This document shows positions 7,718 through 42,506 of a DNA stretch of 64,000 bases, piece by piece. Each line of letters begins with the position of its first letter. Within the stretch, counting starts at the first letter, position 1. The notes below the pieces were generated by a model that saw only the letters and a program-made list of their open reading frames with translations, was not told the DNA's origin and made no database searches. The stretch comes from an uncultured Candidatus Saccharibacteria bacterium (lineage in GTDB: Bacteria; Patescibacteriota; Dojkabacteria; SC72), in assembly GCA_964560525.1 (NCBI GenBank), contig CAZLLO010000001.1, forward strand, positions 78,651 through 142,650, written 5' to 3'. The position numbers and the translations under genes were made by a program.

Positions 7718-7719
7718 TA

Positions 7720-8760: not shown

Positions 8761-8765
8761 TTTTA

Positions 8766-9725
8766 TTATTTTTTGAATTTAGAGTAGTGTTCTTTCTTGG
8801 TATAGTAAAGAATCTTTTCTTGGTTATTCAGCATCCTTCCCAACATATCGGAAAGTACTGCGACTATTAGTATAATTAGAGAGAGAGAGATCAAATATAT
8901 TCCTGTAAACCCTACAAATTTGTATGGTGAGAAATCTCCTGTTGTGACCCAATGTATGAGCAAGAAAAGAACACATATTAAACCGATAACAAATGGGATT
9001 GCAGAAAGCAAGCCAAAGAACTTCATTGGAGCGAAATCTCTAAATGCTCTTAAGATGTTGAAAGTTGAAACTGTAATAAAATTCAAAAGACTTTTTACAA
9101 CACGAGATTTTCTTCCATTGTAATATTTGATTGAAATTGGAACTTGAGCAATATCCAAATTCTTCGAGGCCATTAACTGAAATGATTCTTGTGTATACGT
9201 ATACTTACTATTGATATTCATATGTAGCATTGCTTCTCTGTCATATGCTCTGAAACCACAAGTCACATCTTGGTATTTATTTTCTGTTAGCTTACTTACT
9301 ACATATGCCCCAAGTTTATTACCATAGAACTTACCGTTTGACATATTTTCTGGTTTGCCACTCTTTGAGAATCTATTTCCAGCGACAAAATTAGCCTTCT
9401 CATCCAATATCGGTTGTACTAACAAGGGAATTTCTTCTGGAAGAAACTGTAGATCTCCATCAATATTAACTGCAATATCCGCGCCTAATTCCAAAGCTTT
9501 GTTAATTGCCAATTGAAAAGAATATGCTAGCTTCTTTTGTTTTAGGTTTGAAAGTACAAGGGCTTTATTATCTTTTGCTACTTTGACAGTATTGTCCGTG
9601 CTTCCATCATCTATAACTACCTTAACTATCTCGTCTATACCTGTAATTTTACTTGGAATTCTACTTAGCAATTCACCAATTGTGTTCTCTTCGTTTAGGC
9701 AGATTGAAAAAACAACTAATTTCAT
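8766..9725 (-). CDS. GT2 polyprenyl-phosphate sugar transferase (Dpm1/GtrB/ArnC-like)
   Basis: N-terminal GT-A domain with VVIDDGSTDNT and NIDGDLQ (DxD) motifs. Two C-terminal TM helices, which is typical of lipid-carrier sugar synthases. Confidence 0.75.
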   Translation of the reverse strand: MKLVVFSICLNEENTIGELLSRIPSKITGIDEIVKVVIDDGSTDNTVKVAKDNKALVLSNLKQKKLAYSFQLAINKALELGADIAVNIDGDLQFLPEEIPLLVQPILDEKANFVAGNRFSKSGKPENMSNGKFYGNKLGAYVVSKLTENKYQDVTCGFRAYDREAMLHMNINSKYTYTQESFQLMASKNLDIAQVPISIKYYNGRKSRVVKSLLNFITVSTFNILRAFRDFAPMKFFGLLSAIPFVIGLICVLFLLIHWVTTGDFSPYKFVGFTGIYLISLSLIILIVAVLSDMLGRMLNNQEKILYYTKKEHYSKFKK

Positions 9726-9741
9726 TTTTTTAATATTTAAA

Positions 9742-11016
9742 TTATCTTCCGATACCTCTGTATATTATACCTGATTCTTCAATTACTTTTTTGTCTAGCT
9801 TATTCATACCATCCACCACAACTTTAACATTGGGGTATTTCTTTAATAATGTTCCTAATTCTTTAAAAGGCTTATGTGCAGTACATAGTACAACTGCAAC
9901 AGAATCTTTAAGTGCATCATCTAATGATTTTACATTGCTCATGGTGTCTACATATGGATCATATATCCTTAAATCAGCACCCATGGAAAGAAGAATATCT
10001 TTGACAATAAGGCATGGACTTTCTCTAAGGTCCCCAATATTTTCCTTGTAGCTTAATCCTAAAAGTGCAATCTTTGTTCCCTTGATTGATTTCTCTATCT
10101 CATTCAAAGCTACTTGTAATCTCTCTACAGTATATTGTGGCATGCTATTGTTTACCTCTCGTGCCATTTTTAAGAATTTGTGATCAAATCCACTTTTTGC
10201 CGCTCTATTTATAAGGTAATATGGATCCACCGCAATGCAATGTCCCCCAACACCTCTTCCAGGCCAATGTGGCATAAATGCAAAAGGTTTGTTTGAAGAT
10301 GCCTTAATAGTTTCGATTAAATCTATACCCATTGCATCAAACGATTTCGCTAACTCATTAACATACGCAATGTTAATATCTCTAAAAGTATTTTCAATTA
10401 TCTTAGTCGCCTCAGCAATCTTTAGTGAAGGTACTGGATTTATCTCTCCTTTGAGGAATGATCTGTAAAAATCAGCTATGTTCTTTGCTTCACTTACGGG
10501 GTCTGCCCCGATATTTCTTGGGATATTGTATACATTCCATTTAGGATCACCTGGATTTATCCTTTCTGGACAATGTGCTAATACAAAATTTCCTTTTTTC
10601 AACTTCGCATTATTCTCTAGTAGTACAGGATACACGACTTCTTCGCAAGTACCTGGATTAACTGTAGATTCCAAGATTACAACGGCACCTTTTTTCAAGT
10701 ATTTCGCTGCTAGTTTTGATGCTTCAATAACTGGGATATAGTCTGGTGTATGATCATCAAGTACAGGTGTAGGAACACAGATTATGAAATAGTCTGAATC
10801 CTTGAGAATATCTTGATCTGTTGAGACATTTATATCTACTGTTTTTAAATCTTCTGCGCATGTTTCATCATCTATAGGACAAACTCTCTTACTAATTTTA
10901 TCAACTTTGGGCTGACTTAAATCATAGCCACAAACATTGTATTTCTTACTCTTTGATATAGCACAAAGAAGTGGTAAACCAACATATCCTAGACCTATTA
11001 TCGAGACTTTTTTCAT
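9742..11016 (-). CDS. UDP-N-acetyl-D-glucosamine/mannosamine 6-dehydrogenase (WbpA/WecC/Cap5O family)
   Basis: N-terminal Rossmann motif IIGLGYVGLP. Catalytic-Cys motif GGHCIAVDPYY. 424 aa. Confidence 0.8.
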   Translation of the reverse strand: MKKVSIIGLGYVGLPLLCAISKSKKYNVCGYDLSQPKVDKISKRVCPIDDETCAEDLKTVDINVSTDQDILKDSDYFIICVPTPVLDDHTPDYIPVIEASKLAAKYLKKGAVVILESTVNPGTCEEVVYPVLLENNAKLKKGNFVLAHCPERINPGDPKWNVYNIPRNIGADPVSEAKNIADFYRSFLKGEINPVPSLKIAEATKIIENTFRDINIAYVNELAKSFDAMGIDLIETIKASSNKPFAFMPHWPGRGVGGHCIAVDPYYLINRAAKSGFDHKFLKMAREVNNSMPQYTVERLQVALNEIEKSIKGTKIALLGLSYKENIGDLRESPCLIVKDILLSMGADLRIYDPYVDTMSNVKSLDDALKDSVAVVLCTAHKPFKELGTLLKKYPNVKVVVDGMNKLDKKVIEESGIIYRGIGR

Positions 11017-11078
11017 TGTTTTTCTGAGTTAAAATATAGTGTCACCATTATATACTCTCTTTTTAAGAGTTAGCAAAT

Positions 11079-12377
11079 CTACTTAAAAGTCGATATCGCA
11101 TTAGCACCTTTTGAGAGTCTATAAGATATGAAATAGCATATTACATAAACAATAGCGGTTGATAGCGACCATACCAAAAATCCTAGATATGCGTCCCCAG
11201 AGAAGAATCCAACTGTAAATCCGATGAGTAAAGAGGCAAGTTTCATTAATTCAAACCATATCTTGATCTGTTGCTTTTCAATAACATAAAGGACATCCGT
11301 GATTGGATCTACAACAAATCTAGTGAAATACATCAATGTAAATATTCTAATATATTGTCCTGCAGGTTCCCATTGTGCACCAAACACAAAGGGTACTAAC
11401 AATGGGGCAAATATGAATAATAATGCGAAAGGAATGATACCTATTAAGAAGAGTGTCTTACTCGTTTGTTTTACTACTTCTACACATGAGCCCTTTTCTC
11501 GATACTGTTCTGAAGCTTCTTGCTTTAAGACATCTCCAAAAGAAGAAGTCAAAAACCACACAGGAGATCCTAATATCTTATCTGAAAGCGAATAATACCC
11601 TGCAGAAACTGCACCAAAGACTTTGTTTAAAAATAGGTTAGGAGAAAGGAAAGTAAAATTCTTAAGCAAATCTGCAAATAATGAGAACTTTGGGAATTTT
11701 GAATATACTCTCATTAATTCGAATATCGATTCTTTTGTATTCTCCTTGAAAAACGGCAATATATCCTTACGCAACATTATTACAAAAAGGATTGTACCCG
11801 CTAAGTAGCTAGCTAAATATGAATACATCAAACCACCTTCAGTATATCCTAGAAATCCAGATCCTAATCTCGTGATTACAAGGAAACCTGCTTGTACTAT
11901 TATATTAATAGCTATCTCTTTGTATCTCTTTTCTCTAAGAAAATAGTAGAAAAATGCCTCATATACACCAATAAATAAAACACTAGCTGCCAATATCCAT
12001 AGATAGTTGTATAACAGAGAAATATTTAAGACTTTAAATATTGAATCTCCAAAGAATAAGAGAAGAATTACGAAAACAATTGTACTTAGGCATGTAAGTA
12101 AGATACTAATCCATACCAATTTCTTTGCTTTCTCTTGCTCTTTTGGAAGCATTATAGCTAAGCAATATCTTCCATTGGAAAGCATCGCTATAATAGAAAC
12201 AATCGTTACATAGGCACCAAAATATCCAAATTCTTCAGGTGAATATATTCTAGTAAACAATGGTGTTAGAAGAATAGGAACAGCTTGAGCAAAAAATCTC
12301 CCACTTAACATAATAGAGGTGTTTTTTCTTTCTGTTAGCTTGTTCTTAAGTTTTGCAAATATTGTTTTTATTTCCAT
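11079..12377 (-). CDS. wzx: Wzx-type oligosaccharide flippase (MOP superfamily)
   Basis: 432 aa with about 12-14 TM helices. Located inside the glycan gene cluster. Confidence 0.55.
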   Translation of the reverse strand: MEIKTIFAKLKNKLTERKNTSIMLSGRFFAQAVPILLTPLFTRIYSPEEFGYFGAYVTIVSIIAMLSNGRYCLAIMLPKEQEKAKKLVWISILLTCLSTIVFVILLLFFGDSIFKVLNISLLYNYLWILAASVLFIGVYEAFFYYFLREKRYKEIAINIIVQAGFLVITRLGSGFLGYTEGGLMYSYLASYLAGTILFVIMLRKDILPFFKENTKESIFELMRVYSKFPKFSLFADLLKNFTFLSPNLFLNKVFGAVSAGYYSLSDKILGSPVWFLTSSFGDVLKQEASEQYREKGSCVEVVKQTSKTLFLIGIIPFALLFIFAPLLVPFVFGAQWEPAGQYIRIFTLMYFTRFVVDPITDVLYVIEKQQIKIWFELMKLASLLIGFTVGFFSGDAYLGFLVWSLSTAIVYVICYFISYRLSKGANAISTFK

Positions 12378-14389
12378 AAGTATAGATTCAATTTAGTAAC
12401 TCCATAATAGTATCTATTTGGTATTATTATATACCTACAAAGAGGAATATCCTGAGAATGCCCATTCATTTTAAAAAATACATCCTCACTCCTATTACAG
12501 TGTACAAAATAATTGTTCTCAAACTCTACTGTTTGTAATTTCTCTAAACCCTTTAAATCCAATCCAGGATCAGCTGCAAGGATGTAAACATCATGATACT
12601 CTCGTTTCAAATTCTTAACTTCTGTATTTATCAAATCATTTTCTGAGGGTATCTGCACTATATCTACTCCTAAATAATATTTCAATGGAAAAATAATTTG
12701 GTTAAAAGCATCAAAATTACTATTTATTACCAATAAGACATCGTTTTCTGTAATCAAAGATTGCATCTGTTTTAACTCTGTGATTTTCAATCCCTCAGTA
12801 TTTCTTAACTGTAGTACAGAAAAGAAACAAGAATATATTATGCTAAGTACAAGGACTATGGAAATTAAGATCTTCTTCTTTTTTGTATTGAAAATATCAA
12901 CCAAATACAAAGATATTAAGATGATGCATAGTGGTATAAGTTCACCTAGTTGGTATCTTACATAGTAGTAATAGTATGGAATACCTTTTAGTATTCCCCA
13001 ACAATACACAGCAAATATAATTAAAAGAACTAAGAGAAGCGTAACTTTAATATCTTTTCCATATTTCTTTCTAAAATGAAAAATACTAAATGGGAGCAGA
13101 AGAAATAACGGAGGAGATATTAAAAGGAATGTTGCTAAGAAATTAAGCTGTTTAAAGTTTGAAAGACTTATATCTGAAAACAATGCATTATGGTTTGAGA
13201 TAAATGTAGTATAGATATATGAAATAGACTCATATCCTACTAACCCAATCAAAATACAAATTGCAAAGATAGAAATATATTTAAGATTCTTTTTAACAAA
13301 CGTCACAAGCATTTCTTTTATCCTTCCCTTTCTCAGCAACCATAATATCAGTATGTAAACAGCAAAAAAGAAAAGTAATATCCATACCAATTCAATTCCT
13401 AGAAATCGTTTGCCTATTATTAAATGAAAGAGCTCAGGGAGAAAAATAGCGTAGAAAACATACGATAAGGACAAGGAAGCTAACCATATACCACAATATG
13501 TAAATAGATATTTTCGAAGCTGATTATCTTTGTTAAATAGCATCAATACTAAAGGGATTAAAAGAATAACAGGAAGATACAATAATGCAGTCATTCTAGT
13601 GTAGAAGAGTACTGCTATAGTACATAAAGACATTACTAAATCTGAAACCTTTGTTTGCTTCTCCTTATACCCATTGTAGAATTTAATTAGGTAGTAAAAG
13701 GACAGTAAAAACAATGTCATCGAGATTATCTCTGTAAGAGGAACTCTTGAGAAATACACATGAGCAGGATTCACAGCTACTAATAAAGAGGCCAACAGTG
13801 CAACCTTTTTATTTTTTCCCGAAATCTCATACGCAAAGAGATATGTCGCAGCTATGGATAGTAAACTAAATACAGTAAGAATAGATGCCCTATTATCCGA
13901 GCCAAATAGCTGTCCACCTATTGCTAACCATGACGGCAATACAGGATAGAAAGGCATAACATACTCAGATGAAGCACTGTCTTTTAGTTTAATTCCCAAC
14001 AAGGTATTAGCTTCATCATACAGATTCTTCAGCTCATCAGGTAAAGATTTTCTTACGTTATCGACAATATACAAAGAATGATTTTCCTCATACTGTTTAG
14101 ACAAAGAGATATATGTACCCTGGTCTTGCCCACCTGTTAAGTATAAATTGGGATTTAGTCTAAACCCTACTCCTATAATTAAAACGATTAAAAATAACCA
14201 TGAGAATCTTGCATCTTTCCAAACAATTTTTATTTTTAATAGAGATAGTATTAATACTTCAAAAGGAATCGCTATTAACAATGAAATAAGTGGATAGAAT
14301 ACATTTAAGATTAAAAGCAATACATTGAGAATGCTTACCGTGCAGATATATACAATTAATATTTCAAAGACATTAATCTCTCTTCTCAT
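12368..14389 (-). CDS. Large integral membrane protein (673 aa), possibly GT-C-like glycosyltransferase or polymerase
   Basis: More than 12 TM helices and a soluble C-terminal domain of about 120 aa. Loop 1 is rich in acidic and polar residues (GGQDQGTY). It is co-directional with the glycan cluster. No motif I can name with certainty. Confidence 0.3.
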   Translation of the reverse strand: MRREINVFEILIVYICTVSILNVLLLILNVFYPLISLLIAIPFEVLILSLLKIKIVWKDARFSWLFLIVLIIGVGFRLNPNLYLTGGQDQGTYISLSKQYEENHSLYIVDNVRKSLPDELKNLYDEANTLLGIKLKDSASSEYVMPFYPVLPSWLAIGGQLFGSDNRASILTVFSLLSIAATYLFAYEISGKNKKVALLASLLVAVNPAHVYFSRVPLTEIISMTLFLLSFYYLIKFYNGYKEKQTKVSDLVMSLCTIAVLFYTRMTALLYLPVILLIPLVLMLFNKDNQLRKYLFTYCGIWLASLSLSYVFYAIFLPELFHLIIGKRFLGIELVWILLFFFAVYILILWLLRKGRIKEMLVTFVKKNLKYISIFAICILIGLVGYESISYIYTTFISNHNALFSDISLSNFKQLNFLATFLLISPPLFLLLPFSIFHFRKKYGKDIKVTLLLVLLIIFAVYCWGILKGIPYYYYYVRYQLGELIPLCIILISLYLVDIFNTKKKKILISIVLVLSIIYSCFFSVLQLRNTEGLKITELKQMQSLITENDVLLVINSNFDAFNQIIFPLKYYLGVDIVQIPSENDLINTEVKNLKREYHDVYILAADPGLDLKGLEKLQTVEFENNYFVHCNRSEDVFFKMNGHSQDIPLCRYIIIPNRYYYGVTKLNLYLWK

Positions 14390-15644
14390 ATATTGAATCT
14401 AATACTTTAATACCGTCACTCCAATCGTATCTTTCGACAACTTTCTTTCTACCATTCTCCCCTATCATTTTTCGTTTAACCTTATCTTCAAGAAGATCTT
14501 CTAAGGTTGAAGTTATCGAATCAATATCGTTAAAGTTCAACAGGTAACCGTCATTACCATCTGAAACAATTTCCGACAAAGCATCGTTCTTACATGCAAG
14601 TATAGGTTTACCATATGCCCAAGCTTCAAGGTATACAATACCAAATGAGTCCGTTTTAGAAATCATAGAAAAAATATCTCCAGCATCAAACAGGTCCCAC
14701 TTCTCCTCTTCTGATATATCATCTATATTCAATATATTATTTCGATATTTCTCCTCTACCCCTTCTAAGTACTGGTTGAAATCAGAGCTGTATTGCCCAC
14801 CAAAAACCAAATGACATTTTATTCCTTTATCCCAGATCTTTTTCATACTCTCTATTAGATTAATATCTCCTTTCTCAAAACTCTTTGAGCCAACTCGAAA
14901 AACAATTGGATATTTTAGATTATATTTCTCTCTAAATCTTTTCCCATCTCCATTCATTATTTTATCCACAAAAATACCCTGCCCTACAAGTACAAATTTA
15001 TCATCATCCAAGATAACTCCATTTGTATTACAAAATTCCTTAATTGTTTCTTTTTCCGCTAAGGTATTCAAGAAGATTTTACTTGCATACTGAAAGAATG
15101 GTACTGCAGTTTTCTTAAAATATTTTTTTCTGAGTGGATCCTTCTTGTTCTCTCCTGTATGAAAAGCTGGTGCGATTATGTATGGGATGTTATATTTTCT
15201 GGCAATCAAATAACCAACATAGAATAGAAAATAATATGGTGTAGCAGAAACTGTAATATATGCATAATCAGAAAAGTCAGTTTTATCTATAGCATCCAAC
15301 ATATCATATGAAGTCGGACATGATGCCAGGTTAGCTATTTTGAAATTAGGAAATCTATCAAATAATACTCTTACCGCCTTGTTAATATATCTATTTTTCA
15401 TAAACCCTTTTCCTACTGCAAACCTTCTTACATGTACTCCTTCAATATCTTCTTCTGGTTTTAAAACCTCATCACTACCTAGGTCCCATAAAGTTTCTGG
15501 TTTATATGCATTCGTAGTCCATATATTTACATCATATCCCAATTGTTTATGCTGATATTCAGAAAGAACTTTCATAAAAAGCTCTGCTCCTCCCTTTGCT
15601 GGATAGTATCTTTGTATGATATTTAGTACTTTGGTTTTACTCAT
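14373..15644 (-). CDS. Glycosyltransferase family 4
   Basis: N-terminal RYYPAKGGAE and C-terminal LEAWAYGKPILAC...EIV (E-x7-E) are GT4 motifs. Confidence 0.75.
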   Translation of the reverse strand: MSKTKVLNIIQRYYPAKGGAELFMKVLSEYQHKQLGYDVNIWTTNAYKPETLWDLGSDEVLKPEEDIEGVHVRRFAVGKGFMKNRYINKAVRVLFDRFPNFKIANLASCPTSYDMLDAIDKTDFSDYAYITVSATPYYFLFYVGYLIARKYNIPYIIAPAFHTGENKKDPLRKKYFKKTAVPFFQYASKIFLNTLAEKETIKEFCNTNGVILDDDKFVLVGQGIFVDKIMNGDGKRFREKYNLKYPIVFRVGSKSFEKGDINLIESMKKIWDKGIKCHLVFGGQYSSDFNQYLEGVEEKYRNNILNIDDISEEEKWDLFDAGDIFSMISKTDSFGIVYLEAWAYGKPILACKNDALSEIVSDGNDGYLLNFNDIDSITSTLEDLLEDKVKRKMIGENGRKKVVERYDWSDGIKVLDSIYEKRD

Positions 15645-15741
15645 TTTCTTAATTGTAGATTCTAGAAATTATTATACCCTTTTCTACAAATGTCTGTACA
15701 AATTTGTTAGTATATATGTAGTAAATTATCATTTTTTTAAT

Positions 15742-16884
15742 ATGGTGATACATAGAAAGATATTGGGCTTTTTAATAGTGCCATTCTTGTTAATGGGACT
15801 TTCATTATTAGCTGCAAAACCTGTAGATGCAGCAGAGTTTCATTTCAAAGGATATACATTAGCACAGGATCAAACAGTGAATGATGATGTATATGTGTCA
15901 GGTGATACTGCAGATATCAAAGGTGTTATTAATGGTGACTTATTTGTATGTGCAGAGTCAGTTACAATCTCTGGCACAGTATCTGGTGATATCTATACCG
16001 TAGGTTCCAAGGTTACATTTGAGGGAAATAGTTATGGAAACGTATATATGTTAGGAAACAATCTAAACTTGGAAGGTAGTATTAAAGGAAATCTATACAC
16101 GATGGCAGCTATGATTAATTCCTCTGTTGCTGTAGAAAAAGATTTCACAAATATATCACAAGACGGGACACTAAAGGGTTCTGTTGCAGATGATACAAGA
16201 GTAATTGCGAATAATATCTCTATTGATACTGTAATTGGTGGAGATTTGATTTCGATAGCAAGAATAGATGATGTTGAGAAAGGAAATGTTTCAGGAAATA
16301 TATATAATTGGGGAACAATTAAAGGTTTAGCAAAAGCTCAAGGTGTTGATTTAGATGCTGAGAAACCAAATATTGAGGTTTCTACTTCTCAGAGAGTTTC
16401 CGCCAACTTATTGACAGGATTAATTAGCTTCATTGGATTAGGTTTAGCGGGATATTTCTTGATAACCCTAAGCCCTGTTAAAACTGGGAAGATTGTTTCT
16501 AAGATATCTGGTAGTGTTGGAGATTTCTTCAAGAGTCTAGGTATTGGCTTCTTAATAGCAGCATTAATTCCTATTCCTCTTCTCTTGCTTTTTGTCTCTA
16601 TATTTGGTACATATCTAGGATTATTAATCTCAGGATTGCTTCTATTCTTATGTGTCTTTGGAAGGATATGGACAGAAGTTGCACTTGGAAAAGAGATTCT
16701 TTCTCTTTGTAAAGTTAAAGGATACAGACCTTTTAAATCTTTACTTATTGGTAGAGTTATATCTGTAGCAATAGCTTTTGCACCTATTGTAGGCGCTATA
16801 TATTCCTTAGTACTAACACTAACCTCTCTTGGAGCATTTGTGAGGGTGAAGTTTGATTATTGGAATATTAGTAAAAAGAAATAG
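15742..16884 (+). CDS. Secreted or membrane-anchored beta-helical repeat protein (bactofilin/DUF583-like repeats) with a C-terminal multi-TM domain
   Basis: Signal/TM segment ILGFLIVPFLLMGLSLLAA. Tandem repeats of about 18-20 aa of the form GD-[IVL]-Y / GN-[IVL]-Y, with S-G-D-I and K-G-N-L turns. Four to five C-terminal TM helices. Start placed at the ATG at 15742 rather than the ORF-track 15616. Confidence 0.45.
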   Translation: MVIHRKILGFLIVPFLLMGLSLLAAKPVDAAEFHFKGYTLAQDQTVNDDVYVSGDTADIKGVINGDLFVCAESVTISGTVSGDIYTVGSKVTFEGNSYGNVYMLGNNLNLEGSIKGNLYTMAAMINSSVAVEKDFTNISQDGTLKGSVADDTRVIANNISIDTVIGGDLISIARIDDVEKGNVSGNIYNWGTIKGLAKAQGVDLDAEKPNIEVSTSQRVSANLLTGLISFIGLGLAGYFLITLSPVKTGKIVSKISGSVGDFFKSLGIGFLIAALIPIPLLLLFVSIFGTYLGLLISGLLLFLCVFGRIWTEVALGKEILSLCKVKGYRPFKSLLIGRVISVAIAFAPIVGAIYSLVLTLTSLGAFVRVKFDYWNISKKK

Positions 16885-17770: not shown

Positions 17771-18625
17771 ATGTTTATGGAAAACAATGAAAAGAAAATA
17801 CATATCATGGATATTGTACTTTTCATAGTCTTTTTACTACTTCTAGCTTTTCCCGCATATCTTTGTTACCAGGTACTTGTGACTAACAACAAACCACAAG
17901 AGCAGGGAGACAACAATACTCCAGACCAAGATACAACTACACAAGAAACAACTCCTGAGGAAGTTGTAGTTGATAATGGGCCGCACTATACAGAATCTTT
18001 CGAGAAGATATCTGGCCAGATGGCATATATTGCAGTTCCAACAAAGATAGATACAAGTAACCCTCCTGCGATAATCCTGTATAGCCATGGCTCAAATACT
18101 CGTGTTACTTCAGATACCACGAATTCTTTCATAAAAGATCTGCAAAAATATGGAGAGCTATTTGCAAATAATAATTTCATATTCGCAGCATCAAATGAGC
18201 ATGATGAGAACTGGGGAAATACCGCTTCCATTAGTGATATGCTCAATCTACAACAATGGATAGAACAACGCTACACAACAAGTACTAAACTGTACTTGAT
18301 TGGATTTAGTATGGGTGGACTTCCAACTATGCATTTTACTTCAAAATATCCTGAGGACATCGTAAAGATAGCACTTCTAGCTCCAACGACAAGAACATAC
18401 GAATGGACTAAGACGGAAGTAGCAAAGATAAAGGATATTGATATTAAAATATGGCATGGCACAAGTGATGTAAATATTGGGATATCAAGTTCACGCAATT
18501 TTGTTAAATACATGAAGAATCTAGGAAAAGAAATTGCACTTGTTGAACTTCCAATGAAGACTCACTTTGATGTCGATGCCGAATATATGGATGAGATACT
18601 AACGTTCTTCCAGGCAGAGCTATAA
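17771..18625 (+). CDS. Alpha/beta hydrolase (esterase/lipase-like), membrane-anchored
   Basis: N-terminal TM helix. Nucleophile elbow GFSMGG (GxSxG). An HGS segment near the oxyanion-hole region. Confidence 0.55.
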   Translation: MFMENNEKKIHIMDIVLFIVFLLLLAFPAYLCYQVLVTNNKPQEQGDNNTPDQDTTTQETTPEEVVVDNGPHYTESFEKISGQMAYIAVPTKIDTSNPPAIILYSHGSNTRVTSDTTNSFIKDLQKYGELFANNNFIFAASNEHDENWGNTASISDMLNLQQWIEQRYTTSTKLYLIGFSMGGLPTMHFTSKYPEDIVKIALLAPTTRTYEWTKTEVAKIKDIDIKIWHGTSDVNIGISSSRNFVKYMKNLGKEIALVELPMKTHFDVDAEYMDEILTFFQAEL

Positions 18626-19036
18626 TTTGAACTTGTTAGCAATTCTTTCACCTTCCTCTGCACAAAGCCTTCTGTTAGAGCTACTACTTTGCAATTCTCC
18701 AATCCCCTCCAAAGCCTTTTCCCAATCCTTATTATCTGAATTGTGAGGGACTATATGTACATGCGCGTGAGGAATCATCCTTCCAAAAGTCAGGGTATCT
18801 ACATATTTAAACCCCAAATCATTTCTAAAATGATTTGCTATCTTCTGAACTACTTTAAAATATCCAGAAATATCCTCTATATCCCAAACAAATTGAAAAT
18901 GTTTTTTAGGTATAACCAAAGTATGGCCCTCGGTAAAATTAGAGATGTCTAAGAAAGCAAGATAGTTATCATCCTCATATATCTTGTTACAAGGGATATC
19001 TCCATTAACTATTTTGCAAAAAATACAATCTTCCAT
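18620..19036 (-). CDS. HIT family hydrolase
   Basis: Histidine triad HAHVHIVPH. N-terminal MEDCIFCKI. Start taken at the internal Met; the ORF-track start is 19057. Confidence 0.75.
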   Translation of the reverse strand: MEDCIFCKIVNGDIPCNKIYEDDNYLAFLDISNFTEGHTLVIPKKHFQFVWDIEDISGYFKVVQKIANHFRNDLGFKYVDTLTFGRMIPHAHVHIVPHNSDNKDWEKALEGIGELQSSSSNRRLCAEEGERIANKFKL

Positions 19037-19040
19037 ACAG

Positions 19041-19247
19041 TTATTCCTCAATAACAATTGCCATTGCAGGACATGCCATTGCAGCCTGTCTAACTTTCTC
19101 TTGTAACTCAGGAGCTGTAATATCTACACCCTGATACTCTGCTTTAACATCTACAACACCATCATCTCTCATTTCAAAAACTTCTGGGCATATTGCTACG
19201 CATGAGCCACAAACTGCACACTTTGTCTTGTCTATAGATACTTTCAT
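19041..19247 (-). CDS. Small [4Fe-4S] ferredoxin
   Basis: Motif CAVCGSCVAICP (CxxCxxC...CP). 68 aa, monocluster Thermotoga/Pyrococcus-type. Confidence 0.7.
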   Translation of the reverse strand: MKVSIDKTKCAVCGSCVAICPEVFEMRDDGVVDVKAEYQGVDITAPELQEKVRQAAMACPAMAIVIEE

Positions 19248-19286
19248 TAGAAATATATTTAAATATTAAATAGATAAAAGGATGTA

Positions 19287-19859
19287 CTAAAATTCCTCAT
19301 TCATTAAATAATAGAAACCCTGGGCATGACCACATGATGGACACTCCTTAGGAGGCTCTTTTCCTACATATACATAACCACATTCGGAGCAAACCCATAT
19401 AACCTCAGAATCTTTCTTAAATATAGTACCATCTGTTAACACTGTATGAAGTTTTGTATATCTTTCTGCATGATGACCCTCAGCAACAGCTATAGATTCT
19501 AATCGCTTAGCAATATCCTCATACCCCTCTTCTCTTGCAATCTTGGCAAATTCAGGATACATCTCTTTGTTCTCATGCATCTCTCCATCAATTGCAGCCT
19601 TAAGATTCTCTTGTGTAGTACCTAATATAAAATTAGCCTCAGCCTCTACTTTCAAACTATTATTCCCCTCTTTCAAAGTCTGAATCATTTTCATTAACCA
19701 ATTAGCATGTTCTCTTTCCTGATTAGCCGTCATTTCAAATATCTGTGATATCTGGATATAGCCCTCTTTCCTTGCAATACTAGAATAGAAAGTATATCTA
19801 TTTCTAGCTTGGCTTTCTCCAATAAATGCTTTTGTTAGATTTTCTAAGGTTTTTGACAT
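19287..19859 (-). CDS. rbr: Rubrerythrin
   Basis: Ferritin-like diiron domain with E..H motifs. C-terminal rubredoxin-like CSECG...CPSCGH. Confidence 0.8.
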   Translation of the reverse strand: MSKTLENLTKAFIGESQARNRYTFYSSIARKEGYIQISQIFEMTANQEREHANWLMKMIQTLKEGNNSLKVEAEANFILGTTQENLKAAIDGEMHENKEMYPEFAKIAREEGYEDIAKRLESIAVAEGHHAERYTKLHTVLTDGTIFKKDSEVIWVCSECGYVYVGKEPPKECPSCGHAQGFYYLMNEEF

Positions 19860-19932: not shown

Positions 19933-20964
19933 TTGAAATCCCTTTCTATGACTCCAACACCAAAGGCTCCTCTCTCGATATTAGCATGTCAATCTGGATT
20001 AAGTTTTGCAAAAAGAATAGAAAAGGAATTAAAGAAAAAACATGGAGAAGAGGTACACCTCATAGACTCAGAGGAAATGCATTTTGCTAGCACTGAGTTA
20101 AAAACAGTTATCAATGAAAGTATTCGTGGAAAAGATGTTTTCATAATTCAGGATTGTGAGAACCACTACGAGGGACAATGTACAGATCAAAATTTGCGCG
20201 CTTTATATACTATGGTAGATGCATGTAGAAGATGTGATGCAGAAAGAATTACCGCAGTGTTACCATCATATCCATATGCTAGACAGGATAAGCAATCAGG
20301 GCGAGAGGGTATAACTGCAGCTAGAATAGCGTATGAATTAGAAGGAGATGGTAGCGTTGATCATATAGTCACAATTGACTTGCATAACTCAGCAATACAG
20401 GGATTTTTCAGAAGAGCAAAGATCGATAATCTAATGGGAGGTTATGTTTTAGTTCCAGTATTAAAGAAGATGATTGAAGACAAGGAGAATACTGTCATAA
20501 TGCCTACTGATTTAGGTGGAGCAAAACGCGCTAATCACTATGCCCAAGCATTAAGAACAGATATTGCATTTACATACAAAGCTAGAAACTATTGCAAAGC
20601 CAATACCGTAGATAGTATCTCTATTCTTGGTAATGTTAAAGGAAAAGATGTATATATCGTTGATGATATGATATGCACAGGAGGAACACTAGTTAAAGCA
20701 TTGGAAGAAACTAAAAATATGGGTGCTAAAAAGGTCATAGCTGTATGTACTCATGCGCTATTTAATGGACCTGCAGTTGAGAGATTTCAGGAAGCATATG
20801 AGAAAGGATATCTAGATATGGTCGTTGGAACAGATAGTACATACCATTCGAGAGAATTTCTTAAATCTACACCATGGTTTAAAGAGGTCTCAATTGCAAG
20901 CTATTTTGCAGAAACCATAAGTAGGGTAAATCAAAGGAAATCCATAACTGACCTATTTGATTAA
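19933..20964 (+). CDS. prs: Ribose-phosphate pyrophosphokinase (PRPP synthetase)
   Basis: RITAVLPSYPYARQDKQ; DLHNSAIQGFF; PRPP-binding loop VDDMICTGGTL. Confidence 0.75.
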   Translation: MKSLSMTPTPKAPLSILACQSGLSFAKRIEKELKKKHGEEVHLIDSEEMHFASTELKTVINESIRGKDVFIIQDCENHYEGQCTDQNLRALYTMVDACRRCDAERITAVLPSYPYARQDKQSGREGITAARIAYELEGDGSVDHIVTIDLHNSAIQGFFRRAKIDNLMGGYVLVPVLKKMIEDKENTVIMPTDLGGAKRANHYAQALRTDIAFTYKARNYCKANTVDSISILGNVKGKDVYIVDDMICTGGTLVKALEETKNMGAKKVIAVCTHALFNGPAVERFQEAYEKGYLDMVVGTDSTYHSREFLKSTPWFKEVSIASYFAETISRVNQRKSITDLFD

Positions 20965-22367
20965 ACTGGTTTGTCTGGATTCACAACTTCATGTTTACCA
21001 AAGAATTCTATAGCCATCCTTAGTTCTTCTTTGTCTTGAGCATATTCTTCAAGCGGAATTTTTTGTTCCCATGCTTCATATGCTTGCAAAACTGCCGTAG
21101 CTCCAGCTTTTGTTCCCATAGGGTGAGAATGTACGCCTGCTCCCATTGTGGTTATGAAATCTTGAGTTCCCATGGTATCTAAGAATTTTCCAATTAACAA
21201 AGGATTTAGGCCACCAGAAATAATAGGACACATCTTTTTCATTATTCTCCAATATCCCAAGTTACCGTAATCTTCTCCCTGAGATTCTTTTTGTATTGCT
21301 AATTGTAAGTCAGCATCTTTTTCTGGTATCTCGGACCATATTTGTTTAAAGTAATCCCCTTGTGAATACAATCTTAATGCATGATTTGCAGCCATTACAT
21401 CCTCTTTGGGAGAACCCGCCATCTTACCAATACCTGCAGTACCTGTGTGAATACCTGATGCTCCTGCTAATCTAGCGAATTTGGTTAATACAGAAACTGT
21501 GTACCCAATTGGATTTTCCTCTCTAGTAAATGCACCATGGCCAGCTCTGTGGAAATGAAGAAATACATTTGGATAGTGTCTTCTAATAGTTTGAATAGCC
21601 ATCCATCCCGCAGTAATACCATCTACTAAGAATGCATAACTTCCAGGCTTCATTACTGATTGGATATAGTCTGCACGTTTAAGCATAGTGTCATAATCGG
21701 GAGAAGAGATATTGAAGGAATGTACTTTAGTCTTGCCAGTTTCCTGCTCCACTCTATCCATAGCATGTCTTACATCTTGTACCATCCTATCGTAAGGGCA
21801 GAAATCTTGGTCAGCTTGTGGTTCATCATTTTTAACAAAATCTCCACCACCAGACCAAAAGTCATAGCACAGCTCAGCATATTCAGAAGACGTAAGTCCT
21901 ATCTTAGGTTTAATGATACTTCCGAATATTGGTCTTGTTGGAATATTTAGATATTTCCTCATATCATCTATGGTATATTCTGGGCCATCATACTGTACCA
22001 ACATTTGTGGTGGAAAATATACATCAAGTAACTTACAAACTTTAATACTTGCCATTCCAAATATATTTCCTGCTATGAATGTTATTATATTCTGAATATT
22101 TCCTCCCTTATCAAAGATTCTCCAAGGATATGCAATCCAAACTAAGTTTTGTGTTTCATCTATCCTATATACTAAAGCGTCTAAGCTTTGAGAGAATGGC
22201 GTTGCTGTACCTATCTTTACAAATGATCCTGTAGATGACTCAGCTGCCACTTCACTTGCTGCATCTTCAAGAGACATCCCTTCCTCTCCTTGTAACTTAA
22301 ACACAGCCAACATATATTGACCGTTAAACACATTAGGATTCCCTATTTGAATATATTCTTTTTGCAT
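20961..22367 (-). CDS. rbcL: Ribulose-1,5-bisphosphate carboxylase large subunit, form II/III-like bacterial/archaeal type
   Basis: 468 aa. Active-site residues are conserved. IKPKIGL carries K175. GGGDFVKNDE carries the carbamylated K201 and the metal ligands D203/E204. HFHRAGHGAF carries H294/R295. GTAGIGKMAG carries the loop-6 Lys. SGGLNP and GAGVHSHP are also present. Confidence 0.8.
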   Translation of the reverse strand: MQKEYIQIGNPNVFNGQYMLAVFKLQGEEGMSLEDAASEVAAESSTGSFVKIGTATPFSQSLDALVYRIDETQNLVWIAYPWRIFDKGGNIQNIITFIAGNIFGMASIKVCKLLDVYFPPQMLVQYDGPEYTIDDMRKYLNIPTRPIFGSIIKPKIGLTSSEYAELCYDFWSGGGDFVKNDEPQADQDFCPYDRMVQDVRHAMDRVEQETGKTKVHSFNISSPDYDTMLKRADYIQSVMKPGSYAFLVDGITAGWMAIQTIRRHYPNVFLHFHRAGHGAFTREENPIGYTVSVLTKFARLAGASGIHTGTAGIGKMAGSPKEDVMAANHALRLYSQGDYFKQIWSEIPEKDADLQLAIQKESQGEDYGNLGYWRIMKKMCPIISGGLNPLLIGKFLDTMGTQDFITTMGAGVHSHPMGTKAGATAVLQAYEAWEQKIPLEEYAQDKEELRMAIEFFGKHEVVNPDKPV

Positions 22368-22406
22368 TTTGGGCTTGGGACAGTTTAGTTATTAACTATA
22401 CAATAT

Positions 22407-23183
22407 CTAGTATTTGAATTCTATGTTTTGTCCACTATCCTTTATCATAGTAGCTCCATCCAAATTTCCACTAAATCTTTTTACATACTTTGTACCATCT
22501 TCAAATACCATTTCTATATCAAAAGACATACTAATATTTATATCCTCTGGTGTTACACCTGCATAGTCTAATACATTCGCGCTGTAAAAATGTCCTGTTT
22601 TATCCATGATAGAGGTATAGTTGAATTCCCCTAATTCTTTAAGAATTATTAAAAAATAAGGCATAGAGGTTCCACTGGAAGAGACTTCGTCATAGTAACC
22701 TGGGATTCCATCTACAACACTATACGTCAGTGTCTTACCACTGTCTTTCATATCCGCCGATCTTATGACTTCTTCCATGGGGCCTAAGATATAGTTATAA
22801 CCACCAAGAGTACTACTAATATGATCTGGTTTAATAATTACTACCTTTCCTTTTCTATAACCAGATACTTTAATATTCTTAACTGTTAGTTCTGTGATTT
22901 TGTCTATATGGTACAAATTTATAGTTGGCCATATTTTAATATGTGTAAGATTCATTGTTTTGCTTCCTTCTTCTGTGCTAAAGGATGATGCATATCCTGC
23001 GTTTTGCATTACAGAAACTTTTCTCTCAATCTCTTCTGAATTGACAACGGGTTTGTTACTATCAATTACATTTTTAACACCTGAAAATGTTGTCTTTACT
23101 AGAAAATATACGGGAACAACAAAAAGTATTATTGAAAAGATTAGGGCTATTATGATGAAGATCCTTTTTTTATTTTGTTCCAT
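22407..23183 (-). CDS. Hypothetical membrane-anchored extracytoplasmic protein
   Basis: Single N-terminal TM helix and no recognisable motif. Lies in the same operon-like run as rbcL. Confidence 0.3.
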   Translation of the reverse strand: MEQNKKRIFIIIALIFSIILFVVPVYFLVKTTFSGVKNVIDSNKPVVNSEEIERKVSVMQNAGYASSFSTEEGSKTMNLTHIKIWPTINLYHIDKITELTVKNIKVSGYRKGKVVIIKPDHISSTLGGYNYILGPMEEVIRSADMKDSGKTLTYSVVDGIPGYYDEVSSSGTSMPYFLIILKELGEFNYTSIMDKTGHFYSANVLDYAGVTPEDINISMSFDIEMVFEDGTKYVKRFSGNLDGATMIKDSGQNIEFKY

Positions 23184-23279
23184 CTATATACCGAAGAAAT
23201 TAATATTGAGGATATTTTAATCCTTTTCCTACATCTATTATATATTTTTCTGGGTCAAACTGTATATCAAAAGCCTTAT

Positions 23280-24074
23280 CTATGAATTTAACAACGTCTT
23301 GTGTAAACCTAAAATATTATCAAGAACCTTCTTGGGAACACCTACCTGATTAGTTACATTTTGTAGCTTACCAATTGCAGTACCCCATATATCACGGTAG
23401 TTTATTATCTCTTTCTCTGTAAGGCAGGAATTTGCTTCTTTGAAGTCTGCCAAATAACGATTCAATTGCCCATTTATCTTTCTTTGAGATTCCAAGTGTT
23501 TATACTTCGCATGCTCAGCTTCCTCAACACCATACGACCCAAAAAGGATATTAAATAGCTTTTTCTTTTTTGCAGATTCCATTTGTTCAAATTCAGCCGT
23601 TTCTGTCTTCTCAACGTCTCTTTTTAATTCAGAAAACGCATACATACAAAGTGCATTTTGAGACAAAAGCTTTGTTCTGTAATCAGGCATTAATTTTACA
23701 CAACGGCCATTCAATGCAATATTAATCTCCTCTGGACTACTTGAAGAATTAACTCTTAGCGGATCTTTCTTCTGTTCTTCTTCTAATACGGCTCTATCAA
23801 AAATTCCTAAAGCTTCAACTGAGTTTGGATCATGTATACCATTGCCATAGAGTGTAACAATCGGGAGTGTAAGTGCATAATATGAAAGCAGGCTCTTTTG
23901 CCAAACAGTTGGAAACGCTTCTACCATTCTATCTACATATTCCTGATATTTTTCTCCCTCTCTTACATCTGTATCAATAGCTACTTTAGGATTAACAAAG
24001 TCGAAATATGATGAGTCTATTCCGCTTGCAATATTCTCAGGAAGTTTCAAAGCTCCCGATTCAGATAGTTCCAT
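23280..24074 (-). CDS. Hypothetical protein
   Basis: 264 aa ORF co-directional with ddl and rbcL. No recognisable motif. Confidence 0.3.
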   Translation of the reverse strand: MELSESGALKLPENIASGIDSSYFDFVNPKVAIDTDVREGEKYQEYVDRMVEAFPTVWQKSLLSYYALTLPIVTLYGNGIHDPNSVEALGIFDRAVLEEEQKKDPLRVNSSSSPEEINIALNGRCVKLMPDYRTKLLSQNALCMYAFSELKRDVEKTETAEFEQMESAKKKKLFNILFGSYGVEEAEHAKYKHLESQRKINGQLNRYLADFKEANSCLTEKEIINYRDIWGTAIGKLQNVTNQVGVPKKVLDNILGLHKTLLNS

Positions 24075-24085
24075 ATATGCTAATA

Positions 24086-25036
24086 TTAATTTATATTTCT
24101 TAACAATATATCTCCAAACTCTTCCAATTTCCCGATAGCTTTCAGCTGTTGAGGCAATAGACTTGTTTTAGACATACCAGGAAGTGAATTAGTTTCAAGA
24201 TAGTAAATCTTCCCATCTTTACCTATTATCATGTCAGTTCTGGAGTAACAACCAAGATTTAACCTCTTGTGAATATTAATGCTCATCCTCTTTACCATAT
24301 TCATAACTTCTTCAGATATTCTTGCTGGAGTTATTTCATTAGAACCCCCATTTGTATACTTTGACTTGTAATCAAAGAATTCTCCCTTGGGAAGAATTTC
24401 TGTCGCTGGAAGATCTAGATACTTTCCTTTGTCACATACTGTTCCTATAGAAATCTCCGTTCCCTCAATACATGGTTGTACCAAATATGTATCAGGAGAC
24501 AATGTATCGACAATATTGGCTAATTCTTTTTCATTCTTTATTTTGTATATACCCACGCTGGAACCTTTTGCATTAGGTTTTAGAAAAAGGGGATAGTTCC
24601 ATCGCATTGAAATAATCTCACGAATCAAAGCTTCTCTATCCTCACTAGAACCTTTTACGGTAATATTTTTTGTTGGGATAATATCAATTAGGTCTTTAAC
24701 CACCTCTTGTGAAGCAATTTTATCCATTGAAAGTTTTGCAGATTTAGAAGAAGGACCTGTGAATGGAATCTTTGCCTCTTCGAGGTATTCCTGAATCCAA
24801 CCGTCTTCACAAAACTCACCATGCATTGCATTCACAAACACTCCATTTTGATCTTTTAAATACTTCAGGAAACCTTTCAAATCAAATACTCTCTCTCCAA
24901 TTACAAAAGATTTATCTTTTTTCCATTCAACAAGAATTGGATTATATTTCTGAAGTAGCTCAAAAAAGAGATCTTTACTTGCACAAGACACCTCATTTTC
25001 TGAAGAAGGTCCCCCGTAAACAATATATGGTGTCAT
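24086..25036 (-). CDS. ddl: D-alanine--D-alanine ligase (ATP-grasp)
   Basis: N-terminus VYGGPSSENEVS. ATP-grasp motifs FLKPNAKGSSVGIYKI, EISIGTV and LETNSLPGMS. Confidence 0.75.
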   Translation of the reverse strand: MTPYIVYGGPSSENEVSCASKDLFFELLQKYNPILVEWKKDKSFVIGERVFDLKGFLKYLKDQNGVFVNAMHGEFCEDGWIQEYLEEAKIPFTGPSSKSAKLSMDKIASQEVVKDLIDIIPTKNITVKGSSEDREALIREIISMRWNYPLFLKPNAKGSSVGIYKIKNEKELANIVDTLSPDTYLVQPCIEGTEISIGTVCDKGKYLDLPATEILPKGEFFDYKSKYTNGGSNEITPARISEEVMNMVKRMSINIHKRLNLGCYSRTDMIIGKDGKIYYLETNSLPGMSKTSLLPQQLKAIGKLEEFGDILLRNIN

Positions 25037-25058
25037 AGTAAGTTATTACATTTTAATA

Positions 25059-25132
25059 TCGGGGCGACACGACTTGAACGTGCGACCTCTTGCACCCCAT
25101 GCAAGCGCTCTAGCCAACTGAACTACGCCCCG
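25059..25132 (-). tRNA. tRNA-Pro (anticodon GGG)
   Basis: Read on the minus strand: CGGGGCG-TA-GTTC-AGTTGGCTA-GAGC-G-CTTGC-ATGGGGT-GCAAG-AGGTC-GCACG-TTCAAGT-CGTGT-CGCCCCG. The acceptor has 7 bp, and D-arm, anticodon arm and T-loop are canonical. CCA is not encoded. Confidence 0.8.
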
Positions 25133-25149: not shown

Positions 25150-25731
25150 CTACAAACCTAATTCAGGCGCATTAGCCTTCATCGCATCTAAAGCTATCTC
25201 TACAAATTCTTCTAAAGACAATCCTGCTTTCTCGATATCCTGTATCAAATCTCTCCTCACAGCCTTAGCAAACTCTTTTTTCTTTAGTTTTCTTAAAACA
25301 GTATCTGGAGTTACAGTCGCTATCTTTTTATCTGGCATAACTAAAGCACAAGCCACCAAAAAGCCAGACAAATTCTCAGAAGCAGACAAAGCATAGTCTA
25401 AACTATTTTCTCGATTTTCAGGCACCCTAGGGTTCTCTTCATAGTGTGCTTTTATCGCGTGATATACATCGCTATCAATATCCTTTCCTATTTCTAAGTT
25501 CTCCTTCTTTAAAATATCATCAAATTCAACAACATGCCTGGCTGGATCTTTTCCAACATAATCAAAATCCAAATCATGAAGTAATCCCGCCAAACCCCAT
25601 TTCTCCTCATGACCACCTAATCTATTTGCAACTGCCTGCATAATTATTTCACTCTCTCTCATATGCAACTTAAGCCATGGTGTAGTCACATACTTATTCA
25701 ACAGTTCCATACACTTTTCTCTATTAATCAT
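25150..25731 (-). CDS. HD-domain phosphohydrolase
   Basis: H...HD...D pattern, with LLHDLD. 193 aa. Confidence 0.5.
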   Translation of the reverse strand: MINREKCMELLNKYVTTPWLKLHMRESEIIMQAVANRLGGHEEKWGLAGLLHDLDFDYVGKDPARHVVEFDDILKKENLEIGKDIDSDVYHAIKAHYEENPRVPENRENSLDYALSASENLSGFLVACALVMPDKKIATVTPDTVLRKLKKKEFAKAVRRDLIQDIEKAGLSLEEFVEIALDAMKANAPELGL

Positions 25732-25749: not shown

Positions 25750-26160
25750 TTAACTAATTAAGCCAATTTCTTCTAATCTCTCCTTTAACTGTTTTGCATT
25801 TTCAAATTTAATACTCTTCATTCCAAATTTCTCACCCAGTAAAAGATTTTTCTTATCATCATCCACATATACAACCTCATTACCTTGCTGGTTAATAATT
25901 CGAAGCATATTTTTGTACGCAAAAGGTATGAATTTAGGAAGATTAGTGTCTTCAGTAAGAATAATTTTGTTAAAATATTTTAGAAACTCATATTCAGTAT
26001 CAAACTTTAACATTTTTGATTTTAAGGTATTTGAAAAGAGGAAAAGGGAAAATCCAAAGTCATGAAGCGATTTTATGAGAGCAACCATTTCTGGATCTAT
26101 CTTGTGTTCTCTTGTATTTAGTATGACTCCGTTAAAATCAAAAACAATTGCTTTAACCAA
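25750..26160 (-). CDS. HAD-superfamily hydrolase-like protein (short)
   Basis: N-terminal motif I VFDFNGVIL (DxN variant). 136 aa. Confidence 0.4.
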   Translation of the reverse strand: MVKAIVFDFNGVILNTREHKIDPEMVALIKSLHDFGFSLFLFSNTLKSKMLKFDTEYEFLKYFNKIILTEDTNLPKFIPFAYKNMLRIINQQGNEVVYVDDDKKNLLLGEKFGMKSIKFENAKQLKERLEEIGLIS

Positions 26161-42047: not shown

Positions 42048-42506
42048 ATGGGTGAAAACATATATCAGACTACACTGGCCGGTCTTAAAAAACTAAAAGA
42101 TGAATTAATACACAGAGAGAATGTGTTAAGACAGGATATTGCAAATATTCTAAACGAGATGAGAAATCAAGGAGATCTAAAAGAGAATGATGGATATTCT
42201 ATGGCTATAGAGAATCAACAGATAAATGAAGATAGGATATTGGAATTAAAGACAAAGATTAAGGGTGCAAAGGTTGTTAAAGATGACAACAAAGGTATTG
42301 TTGGAATTGGAGATACTGTAACCTTGAAAGGTAGCAAAACTATAAAGTATGAAATAACCAGCGAGGATGATGCTAACCCACTTGAAGGAAAAATCTCTCA
42401 TCTTTCCCCTATCGGAAAAGCTATTATGGGGAAGAAACTTAAAGCAGAAGTAGTTATTGTCACACCAAAAGGAGAAACTAAGTACACAGTAGAAGCTATT
42501 GCTTAG
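42048..42506 (+). CDS. greA: Transcription elongation factor GreA (canonical)
   Basis: The coiled-coil tip GDLKENDGY keeps the catalytic Asp and Glu. C-terminal ISHLSPIGKAIMGKKLKAEV. Confidence 0.75.
   Translation: MGENIYQTTLAGLKKLKDELIHRENVLRQDIANILNEMRNQGDLKENDGYSMAIENQQINEDRILELKTKIKGAKVVKDDNKGIVGIGDTVTLKGSKTIKYEITSEDDANPLEGKISHLSPIGKAIMGKKLKAEVVIVTPKGETKYTVEAIA

Follow-up and report, generated by a model that had tools for sequence, protein, structure and literature searches.

The locus considered here raises the question of whether a form II/III-like RuBisCO (the carboxylase and oxygenase of ribulose-1,5-bisphosphate), encoded with neither AMP phosphorylase nor ribose-1,5-bisphosphate (R15P) isomerase nearby, is a genuine carboxylase, and whether the genes packed around it supply RuBP (ribulose-1,5-bisphosphate), its substrate. 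The gene lies in a 64-kb stretch of contig CAZLLO010000001.1 from a Dojkabacteria genome (the window; GC 34%, translation table 11), where it shares a strand with a D-alanine--D-alanine ligase gene (ddl) and two orphan open reading frames (ORFs) and converges on prs, the gene for phosphoribosyl pyrophosphate (PRPP) synthetase. In our view, the gene likely encodes a form II/III RuBisCO of the ordinary Dojkabacteria kind that carries out the last step of nucleotide salvage, with its partner genes placed elsewhere in the genome, a slot of variable gene content upstream, and a housekeeping prs at its 3' end. Publications and database deposits already cover the enzyme class and its occurrence in candidate division WS6, and they include nearly identical sequences, a solved structure and the pathway context. 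Form II/III RuBisCO has been on record in WS6/Dojkabacteria since 2016, public metagenome-assembled genomes (MAGs) have contained ~90%-identical proteins from 2015 on, and the structure of a ~93%-identical enzyme is already solved; as a discovery the locus carries little weight.

Form and active site of the RuBisCO

Residues 1-468 of the RuBisCO large subunit align without gaps to PDB 9DYP/9DYR, at 1001 bits and ~93% identity (counted from the alignment). These entries, deposited as "ribulose-1,5-bisphosphate carboxylase", have the same length of 468 amino acids (aa) and differ from the window protein by ~30 substitutions, mainly conservative; they are so close in sequence as to be in effect one enzyme with it, from a sister strain or species. 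The next PDB matches are 8VGS (658 bits) and the form II/III RuBisCO of Methanococcoides burtonii (5MAC, 639 bits), the latter at twice the score of any form II structure. Other forms of RuBisCO score lower, with 317 bits for the best form II, 229 for form III-b, and ~209 or less for form I. The NCBIfam model NF010002 is matched at 553 bits against a cutoff of 489, while the RuBisCO-like protein (RLP) models MtnW and OiaX reach only 89-161 bits against cutoffs of 409-700.

In the protein's own numbering, the catalytic residues comprise E43 and T46 (motif ESSTG); N101; K153 and K155 (KPKIG); the carbamylated lysine K179 together with D181 and E182 (GGGDFVKNDE); H273 and R274 (HFHRAGH); H307 (GIHTGT); the loop-6 lysine K315 (GKMAG); S384-G386 (SGG, 384-386); and G409/G411 (MGAGVH). 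The positions of these motifs are unchanged in 16/16 form II/III sequences. Going by the canonical motifs, we take the spinach equivalents to be K175, K177, K201, D203, E204, H294, R295, H327, K334, S379, G381, G403 and G404, and, on the N-terminal side, E60, T65, and N123. A preliminary description of the locus had reported the catalytic residues to be intact, which they are, under numbers that belong to spinach and are shifted in the protein itself. It had also called the protein a bona fide carboxylase and not an RLP, a reading that the PDB and NCBIfam scores bear out. Form IV (RLP) identity is ruled out by the intact motifs together with MtnW and OiaX scores far below cutoff. The window protein is accordingly classed as a bona fide form II/III RuBisCO, with predicted RuBP carboxylation activity.

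The insertion typical of form II/III enzymes (at about residues 345-375) shows no gap against 8VGS or against its close homologue P0116, and P0097 is gapped at this site. Because the match to 5MAC pairs residues 2-456 of the window protein with residues 16-471 of the structure, the insertion must be present; it is the characteristic ~29-aa insertion of the archaeal/SR1 subtype. Several Dojkabacteria II/III enzymes differ in carrying a longer insert at the same site, whereas the clade of the window has the short archaeal/SR1-type insertion. The RuBisCO of the closed WS6-1 genome has a 48-aa insertion (Wrighton 2016, PMC5113843). Archaeal form II/III enzymes are ~60% identical to the window RuBisCO. 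Like the window enzyme, the form II/III RuBisCOs of M. burtonii (5MAC) and of CPR bacteria (Candidate Phyla Radiation; Wrighton et al. 2012 and 2016, Jaffe et al. 2019) combine a complete catalytic set with the absence of a small subunit, and a role in AMP/pentose-bisphosphate salvage has been proposed for them, as it is here.

Related loci, numbered with the prefix L below, were collected by exact-protein look-ups, by a scan of GTDB species representatives and by a metagenome scan with ddl, and were scored by tblastn with the window proteins. The GTDB scan recovered WS6 bacterium GW2011_GWC2_36_7 (L017, LBSF01000049) among the sequences of 90-91% identity and several named Dojkabacteria MAGs at 77-81%. 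At 60-66% it recovered more Dojkabacteria, other Patescibacteria, DPANN archaea, Methanosarcinales (Methanolobus, Methanosalsum), Peregrinibacteria and SR1. Methanolobus/Methanosalsum, SR1, Peregrinibacteria, DPANN, and Dojkabacteria form the classical set of form II/III hosts. The sequence cluster of a 90%-identical homologue includes proteins KKQ04046 and KKP92911 from candidate division WS6 MAGs (Rifle). In the metagenome contig L095 (2592-3970) the RuBisCO orthologue is broken into two ORFs (243 + 213 aa); the break is either a frameshift from assembly or, in that population, the mark of a pseudogene.

A variable slot between tRNA-Pro and RuBisCO

Every feature of the preliminary description was found at the position it had been given, including the convergent 4-bp overlap of prs and RuBisCO. 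The locus and its upstream synteny anchors are arranged as follows.

19948..20964, + strand: prs, PRPP synthetase (ribose-phosphate diphosphokinase), 338 aa from the likely true start ATG 19948; the listed ORF begins at TTG 19933
20961..20964, no strand: TTAA, the overlap of the convergent prs and RuBisCO stop codons, both TAA
20961..22367, - strand: form II/III RuBisCO large subunit, 468 aa, full set of active-site motifs (PDB, NCBIfam, motif positions)
22368..22412, - strand: conserved ~45-nt block preceding the RuBisCO ATG (alignment of nine relatives)
22407..23183, - strand: ORF258, an orphan with a predicted N-terminal transmembrane (TM) helix and beta-sandwich domain; no Pfam or NCBIfam match
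23280..24074, - strand: ORF264, a soluble, all-helical orphan by prediction; no Pfam or NCBIfam match
24086..25036, - strand: ddl, probable divergent D-alanine--D-alanine ligase (Pfam, PDB matches)
25059..25132, - strand: tRNA-Pro(GGG) (ARAGORN; Rfam 55.7 bits)
25150-25731, - strand: HD-domain phosphohydrolase (Pfam HD), synteny anchor upstream of tRNA-Pro
25750-26160, - strand: HAD-family phosphatase (Pfam HAD_2, Hydrolase), synteny anchor upstream of tRNA-Pro

The genes ddl, ORF264, ORF258 and RuBisCO all lie on the - strand with short spacing, and the gaps from tRNA-Pro through to RuBisCO are 22, 11, 96, and 39 bp. From this co-direction and tight packing, an operon of the four genes could be inferred. 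The gene order of the relatives was examined for the same arrangement. Those with RuBisCO 84-92% identical to that of the window share a common backbone, in which DUF3048, ORF341, HAD, HD and tRNA-Pro stand upstream, RuBisCO lies tail to tail with prs, and Fer4 and HIT genes follow downstream, with rubrerythrin and/or an ABC transporter between prs and Fer4/HIT. Wherever a relative's RuBisCO is at least 84% identical, both the HAD and the HD gene are retained. The HD gene adjoins tRNA-Pro in L001, L003, L012, L015, L017, L018, and L096, and in L095 tRNA-Pro follows the truncated 3' end of the HD gene at the contig edge. What stands between tRNA-Pro and RuBisCO changes from genome to genome:

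Window: ddl, ORF264, ORF258
L095: ddl (72% identical), an unrelated 175-aa ORF, ORF258
L012: ORF264 homologue, ORF258
L001 and L016: ORF258 alone
L015 and L017: CutA1, a 63-aa ORF, a 172-aa ORF, ORF258
L018: ~1 kb of other sequence, ORF258
L003 and L004: TPR protein (opposite strand), CutA1, a 63-aa ORF, a 172-aa ORF, ABC transporter; no ORF258

At least six gene contents are thus found in the slot among genomes with RuBisCO 84-92% identical, and the proteins of the slot cassettes have no mutual similarity. The sister loci L001, L012, L015, L016, L017, L018, and L095 share with the window the backbone HAD-HD-tRNA-Pro-…-ORF258-RuBisCO/prs, with rubrerythrin where present, and differ from it (ddl and ORF264) in the genes between tRNA-Pro and ORF258. 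The order ddl-ORF264-ORF258-RuBisCO is not conserved across these relatives. The operon with ddl and two unknown proteins, as the locus had been described, therefore holds as regards strand and spacing but not as a conserved unit; because the slot genes differ from genome to genome, it is better seen as a packing arrangement in a flexible slot. In this comparison ddl, ORF264, and ORF258 appear as neighbours of RuBisCO through genome packing and not as its pathway partners, and tRNA-Pro(GGG) appears as the conserved anchor that forms the upstream boundary of the variable cassette. Since the slot is hypervariable, guilt by association is invalid for genes upstream of RuBisCO in this genus. The combination of a variable cassette adjacent to tRNA-Pro with a conserved stop overlap between RuBisCO and prs, within one genus, is a slightly new descriptive point.

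The ~45-nt block directly before the RuBisCO ATG (…TATAGTTAATAACTAAACTGT…GCCCAAAATG) is conserved in nine of nine aligned relatives, among them L003, in which RuBisCO is preceded by an unrelated gene, for an ABC transporter. Because the block is conserved whatever gene stands upstream, RuBisCO likely has a promoter or leader of its own, and the block probably represents this promoter or 5' leader. No obvious Shine-Dalgarno sequence is seen within it. Scans for sigma-70 promoters and terminators with a generic consensus gave hits at or below shuffle expectation, and no riboswitch or other regulatory RNA was found by Rfam in 19-26 kb.

RuBisCO itself occupies other sites in more distant relatives. 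In the next clade, at 79-81% identity, the order is nusA-infB-RuBisCO-rpsO-pnp (L005, L007, L011, and L019-L029; e.g. L005:6920-13929), and in the 77% loci L009/L010 it is nusA-infB-RuBisCO-groES-groEL. This comparison of loci shows that the RuBisCO gene has changed genomic site within the phylum. Proximity to the polynucleotide phosphorylase gene pnp and the highly expressed operon of the sister clade would fit a role in nucleotide salvage.

The ddl product matches the Pfam domains Dala_Dala_lig_C (119 bits) and Dala_Dala_lig_N (55 bits), both above cutoffs, and its best PDB matches are all Ddl enzymes (E ~3e-31). Against the NCBIfam Ddl models it falls below the curated cutoffs (e.g. TIGR01205, 185 vs 245.65). 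From these matches it is probably a divergent member of the Ddl family and a peptidoglycan-synthesis gene; divergent Ddl members are common in CPR. By tblastn with the window protein, none of L001-L094 has a ddl within 10 kb of its RuBisCO gene. L095 and L096 have ddl after tRNA-Pro, and L097 and L098 have it next to the HD gene. In L097, a more distant relative (1-1657; ddl 62% identical), the order is HD-ddl-tRNA-Pro, swapped for ddl and tRNA relative to the window, and a weak ORF258-like ORF (29% identity) comes next.

Further indel variation surrounds the locus. The window at 18620-19859 is without the ~600-aa ABC-transporter ATPase that sits between prs/rubrerythrin and the ferredoxin gene in L001, L003, and L012, and L001 and L012 are without rubrerythrin. 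Called from TTG 19057, the HIT ORF has a 17-bp overlap with the ferredoxin gene; its relatives measure 135-138 aa and the start is probably mis-called. In the whole-window Rfam scan at gathering threshold, tRNA-Pro went unlisted while tRNA-Glu was listed, and a 7-kb scan gave 55.7 bits for it, above the gathering score. Search size, acting through a filter, seems to account for the omission.

Supply of RuBP and the convergent prs

The 64-kb window encodes no AMP phosphorylase (Glycos_transf_3/PYNP_C) and no R15P isomerase (IF-2B family), as assessed by Pfam on 47 ORFs and by six-frame phmmer and hmmsearch, and motif regular expressions for the thymidine-phosphorylase and IF-2B families gave no match either. 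The absence of deoA (AMP phosphorylase) and e2b2 (R15P isomerase) near RuBisCO, as first described, is therefore real. The accompanying expectation, that these genes are often adjacent to this enzyme, does not apply to form II/III. A survey of form II/III loci from 80 species representatives, 1.21 Mb in total and with 45 loci of 15 kb or more, uncovered a gene of either family within 10 kb of RuBisCO at three loci only. Two of these are from Woesearchaeota, with the deoA family represented in L072 and IF-2B in L060; the third, L094 (SR1), again has IF-2B. The search seeds were E. coli DeoA and B. subtilis MtnA; their family membership was verified by Pfam, and their sensitivity is supported by the detection of these three loci. 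Since 77 of 80 species loci have neither gene within this distance, their absence near a form II/III RuBisCO is no anomaly or signal. Tight co-location of AMP-pathway genes with RuBisCO is found mainly in form III-c (Jaffe 2019, PMC6389311), where CPR loci contain deoA-RuBisCO-e2b2 clusters or fusions, unlike the window with neither gene in 64 kb.

In other genomes the partner genes are present. All RuBisCO-bearing CPR genomes examined by Wrighton 2016 have both AMP-pathway homologues (PMC5113843), and AMP phosphorylase and RuBisCO are conserved in Dojkabacteria (Jaffe 2020, PMC7304191). In PER-1 (Peregrinibacteria), AMP phosphorylase and the isomerase are encoded on another scaffold than the form II/III RuBisCO, which is flanked by hypothetical proteins and purine/pyrimidine genes (PMC5113843), akin to prs, HAD, HD, and HIT at the window locus. 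PER-1 belongs to a different phylum, however; PER enzymes are without the ~29-aa insertion, and the specific neighbours are not in common with the window.

Within the reading that we favour, AMP phosphorylase would convert AMP and inorganic phosphate to R15P and adenine, and R15P isomerase would turn R15P into RuBP. The window RuBisCO would then, as is proposed for other CPR and archaeal enzymes of forms II/III and III, combine RuBP with CO2 and H2O to give two molecules of 3-phosphoglycerate (3-PGA), which would feed lower glycolysis for ATP. Genes for AMP phosphorylase and the isomerase would stand at other sites of the genome, the usual situation for form II/III, and RuBisCO would be expressed from its own promoter or leader in the ~45-nt block before its ATG. 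The convergent prs would serve base salvage, its overlap with RuBisCO representing inherited synteny within one genus. The same logic (nucleotide ribose to R15P to RuBP to 3-PGA) and the carboxylase chemistry of the same superfamily are found in the AMP/pentose-bisphosphate pathway of Thermococcus kodakarensis, reportedly described by Sato in 2007 and by Aono in 2012 and 2015.

The convergent gene encodes a standard class I PRPP synthetase, with the Pfam domains Pribosyltran_N, Pribosyltran, and Pribosyl_synth, 286 bits against NCBIfam TIGR01251 (cutoff 113), and best PDB matches that are all Prs enzymes (E ~5e-50). The start at ATG 19948 is likely because 338-aa orthologues align from residue 6 of the TTG-started ORF. 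The palindrome TTAA holds both stop codons of the 4-bp overlap. The tail-to-tail overlap is kept in 10/10 related loci with RuBisCO at least 84% identical, while its bases vary (TTAA, TTAG, CTAA). Adjacency of RuBisCO and prs is limited to this one genus-level clade.

In a rival account this pairing would be a mechanism for RuBP supply, in which RuBisCO and prs would act together to channel ribose-5-phosphate to RuBP through PRPP in this Dojkabacteria genus. The route could run from PRPP and adenine to AMP and on to R15P, by adenine phosphoribosyltransferase (APRT) and AMP phosphorylase, or PRPP could lose its beta-phosphate to give R15P, directly or with the help of an enzyme; antisense read-through at the overlapping 3' ends of the convergent genes would tie the expression of one to that of the other. 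The Prs reaction releases PRPP and AMP, and PRPP with adenine gives AMP, the substrate of the AMP pathway, which makes a loose thematic link between the two genes possible. The overlap has survived base changes in all 11 loci of the clade, the synthetase is a bona fide Prs, and WS6 has been reported to be without pentose-phosphate and upper-glycolysis genes, with a PRPP feed of the AMP pathway through APRT (PRPP to AMP to R15P) already raised (Wrighton 2016, PMC5113843). The pair nevertheless occurs only in genomes that have their whole neighbourhood in common (HAD-HD-tRNA-Pro on one side; Fer4 and HIT, with rubrerythrin and/or the ABC transporter, on the other), and no prs occurs within 10 kb of RuBisCO at the other ~70 form II/III loci, the 77-81% sister clade included. 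Because the clade shares its whole neighbourhood, recent common ancestry adequately explains the conservation of the pair, and the prs link of the preliminary description finds no support. No APRT gene is present among the window ORFs scanned, and the non-enzymatic step from PRPP to R15P has been described in thermophiles only and was judged unlikely for organisms of a ~14 °C aquifer (PMC5113843). We regard a functional pair as unlikely. More doubtful still is the extended proposal that the overlap reflects a PRPP-fed RuBP route by which an organism without a pentose-phosphate pathway would ferment scavenged ribose, with co-regulation at the 3' ends and ORF258 perhaps co-expressed in nucleotide scavenging. 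If true, such a PRPP-fed route would add, in organisms of minimal metabolism, a variant point of entry into the pentose-bisphosphate pathway of bacteria.

Two further accounts were weighed. The preliminary description had suggested ORF258 and ORF264 as candidates for the supply or regulation of RuBP, such that one or both would be new enzymes or regulators replacing the missing adjacent deoA and e2b2. Both proteins are uncharacterised and are encoded on the RuBisCO strand across short gaps (39 and 96 bp), and wherever RuBisCO is at least 89% identical, ORF258 precedes it. ORF264, by contrast, is missing in most sister loci, has two other homologues in total among 5.8 billion proteins, and is predicted to be a soluble, generic helical bundle. 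No member of the ORF258 family occurs at L003/L004 or at the 70+ more distant RuBisCO loci, and a distant relative lies between cupin and helicase genes, away from RuBisCO. Occurring without RuBisCO and missing at all other RuBisCO loci, the family was also rejected as a RuBisCO accessory factor. ORF258 evolves far faster than RuBisCO (54-74% identity vs ~90%), and its predicted TM-anchored beta-sandwich resembles toxins, adhesins, and pilins. Neither orphan has a nucleotide- or sugar-phosphate-binding fold or motif, or any recognisable enzyme fold. Our conclusion is that both are accessory proteins specific to the lineage, with no connection to RuBP supply; ORF258 is probably a cell-surface protein and not an enzyme, and a part for either in making or regulating RuBP is hardly credible. 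Only slightly less improbable is that RuBisCO is a recently acquired, possibly non-functional passenger and that the stretch from tRNA-Pro to prs is a mobile tRNA-adjacent island. The variable cassette does abut a tRNA gene, the genomic position of RuBisCO differs between sister clades, CPR RuBisCO is on record as laterally transferred (PMC6389311), and the L095 gene is split. Against this, GC and GC3 (GC at third codon positions) of every gene of the locus match the rest of the window with no compositional anomaly; no mobile-element genes turned up in the scans run, and within the slot neither an integrase or transposase nor a repeat signature was seen. On these grounds the variable cassette was rejected as foreign DNA. 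RuBisCO, prs, and the flanking anchors are moreover stably syntenic and ~90% identical, with catalytic residues intact, the variation being limited to the small genes that separate tRNA-Pro from RuBisCO.

Several points weigh against an ordinary salvage enzyme in an indifferent neighbourhood. The placement of partner genes elsewhere in the genome draws on literature about related genomes and not on this MAG. The constant position of ORF258 ahead of RuBisCO at 89% identity and above makes a lineage-specific association possible. Preservation of the prs overlap through base changes across the clade is compatible with some selective constraint, and the conserved neighbours HAD, HD, HIT, and prs, all nucleotide or phosphoester enzymes, might hint at a loose thematic clustering.

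Features elsewhere in the window

A large cell-envelope glycosylation cluster occupies 820-16884. Its genes encode a Wzt-type ABC transporter, an ABC-2 permease, two PMT_2-like membrane proteins, glycosyltransferases of the GT1, GT2, and GT4 families, a UDP-glucose/GDP-mannose dehydrogenase, and a polysaccharide-synthesis flippase, and its large ORFs without a Pfam match include 2908-4746, 7720-8760, and 15616-16884. Paralogues of the GreA/GreB family at 40335-40799 (- strand) and 42048-42506 (+ strand) flank trmD and tRNA-Glu(CTC). Bacterial class A RNase P RNA (Rfam RF00010, 153.5 bits) is encoded at 52780-53082 on the - strand.

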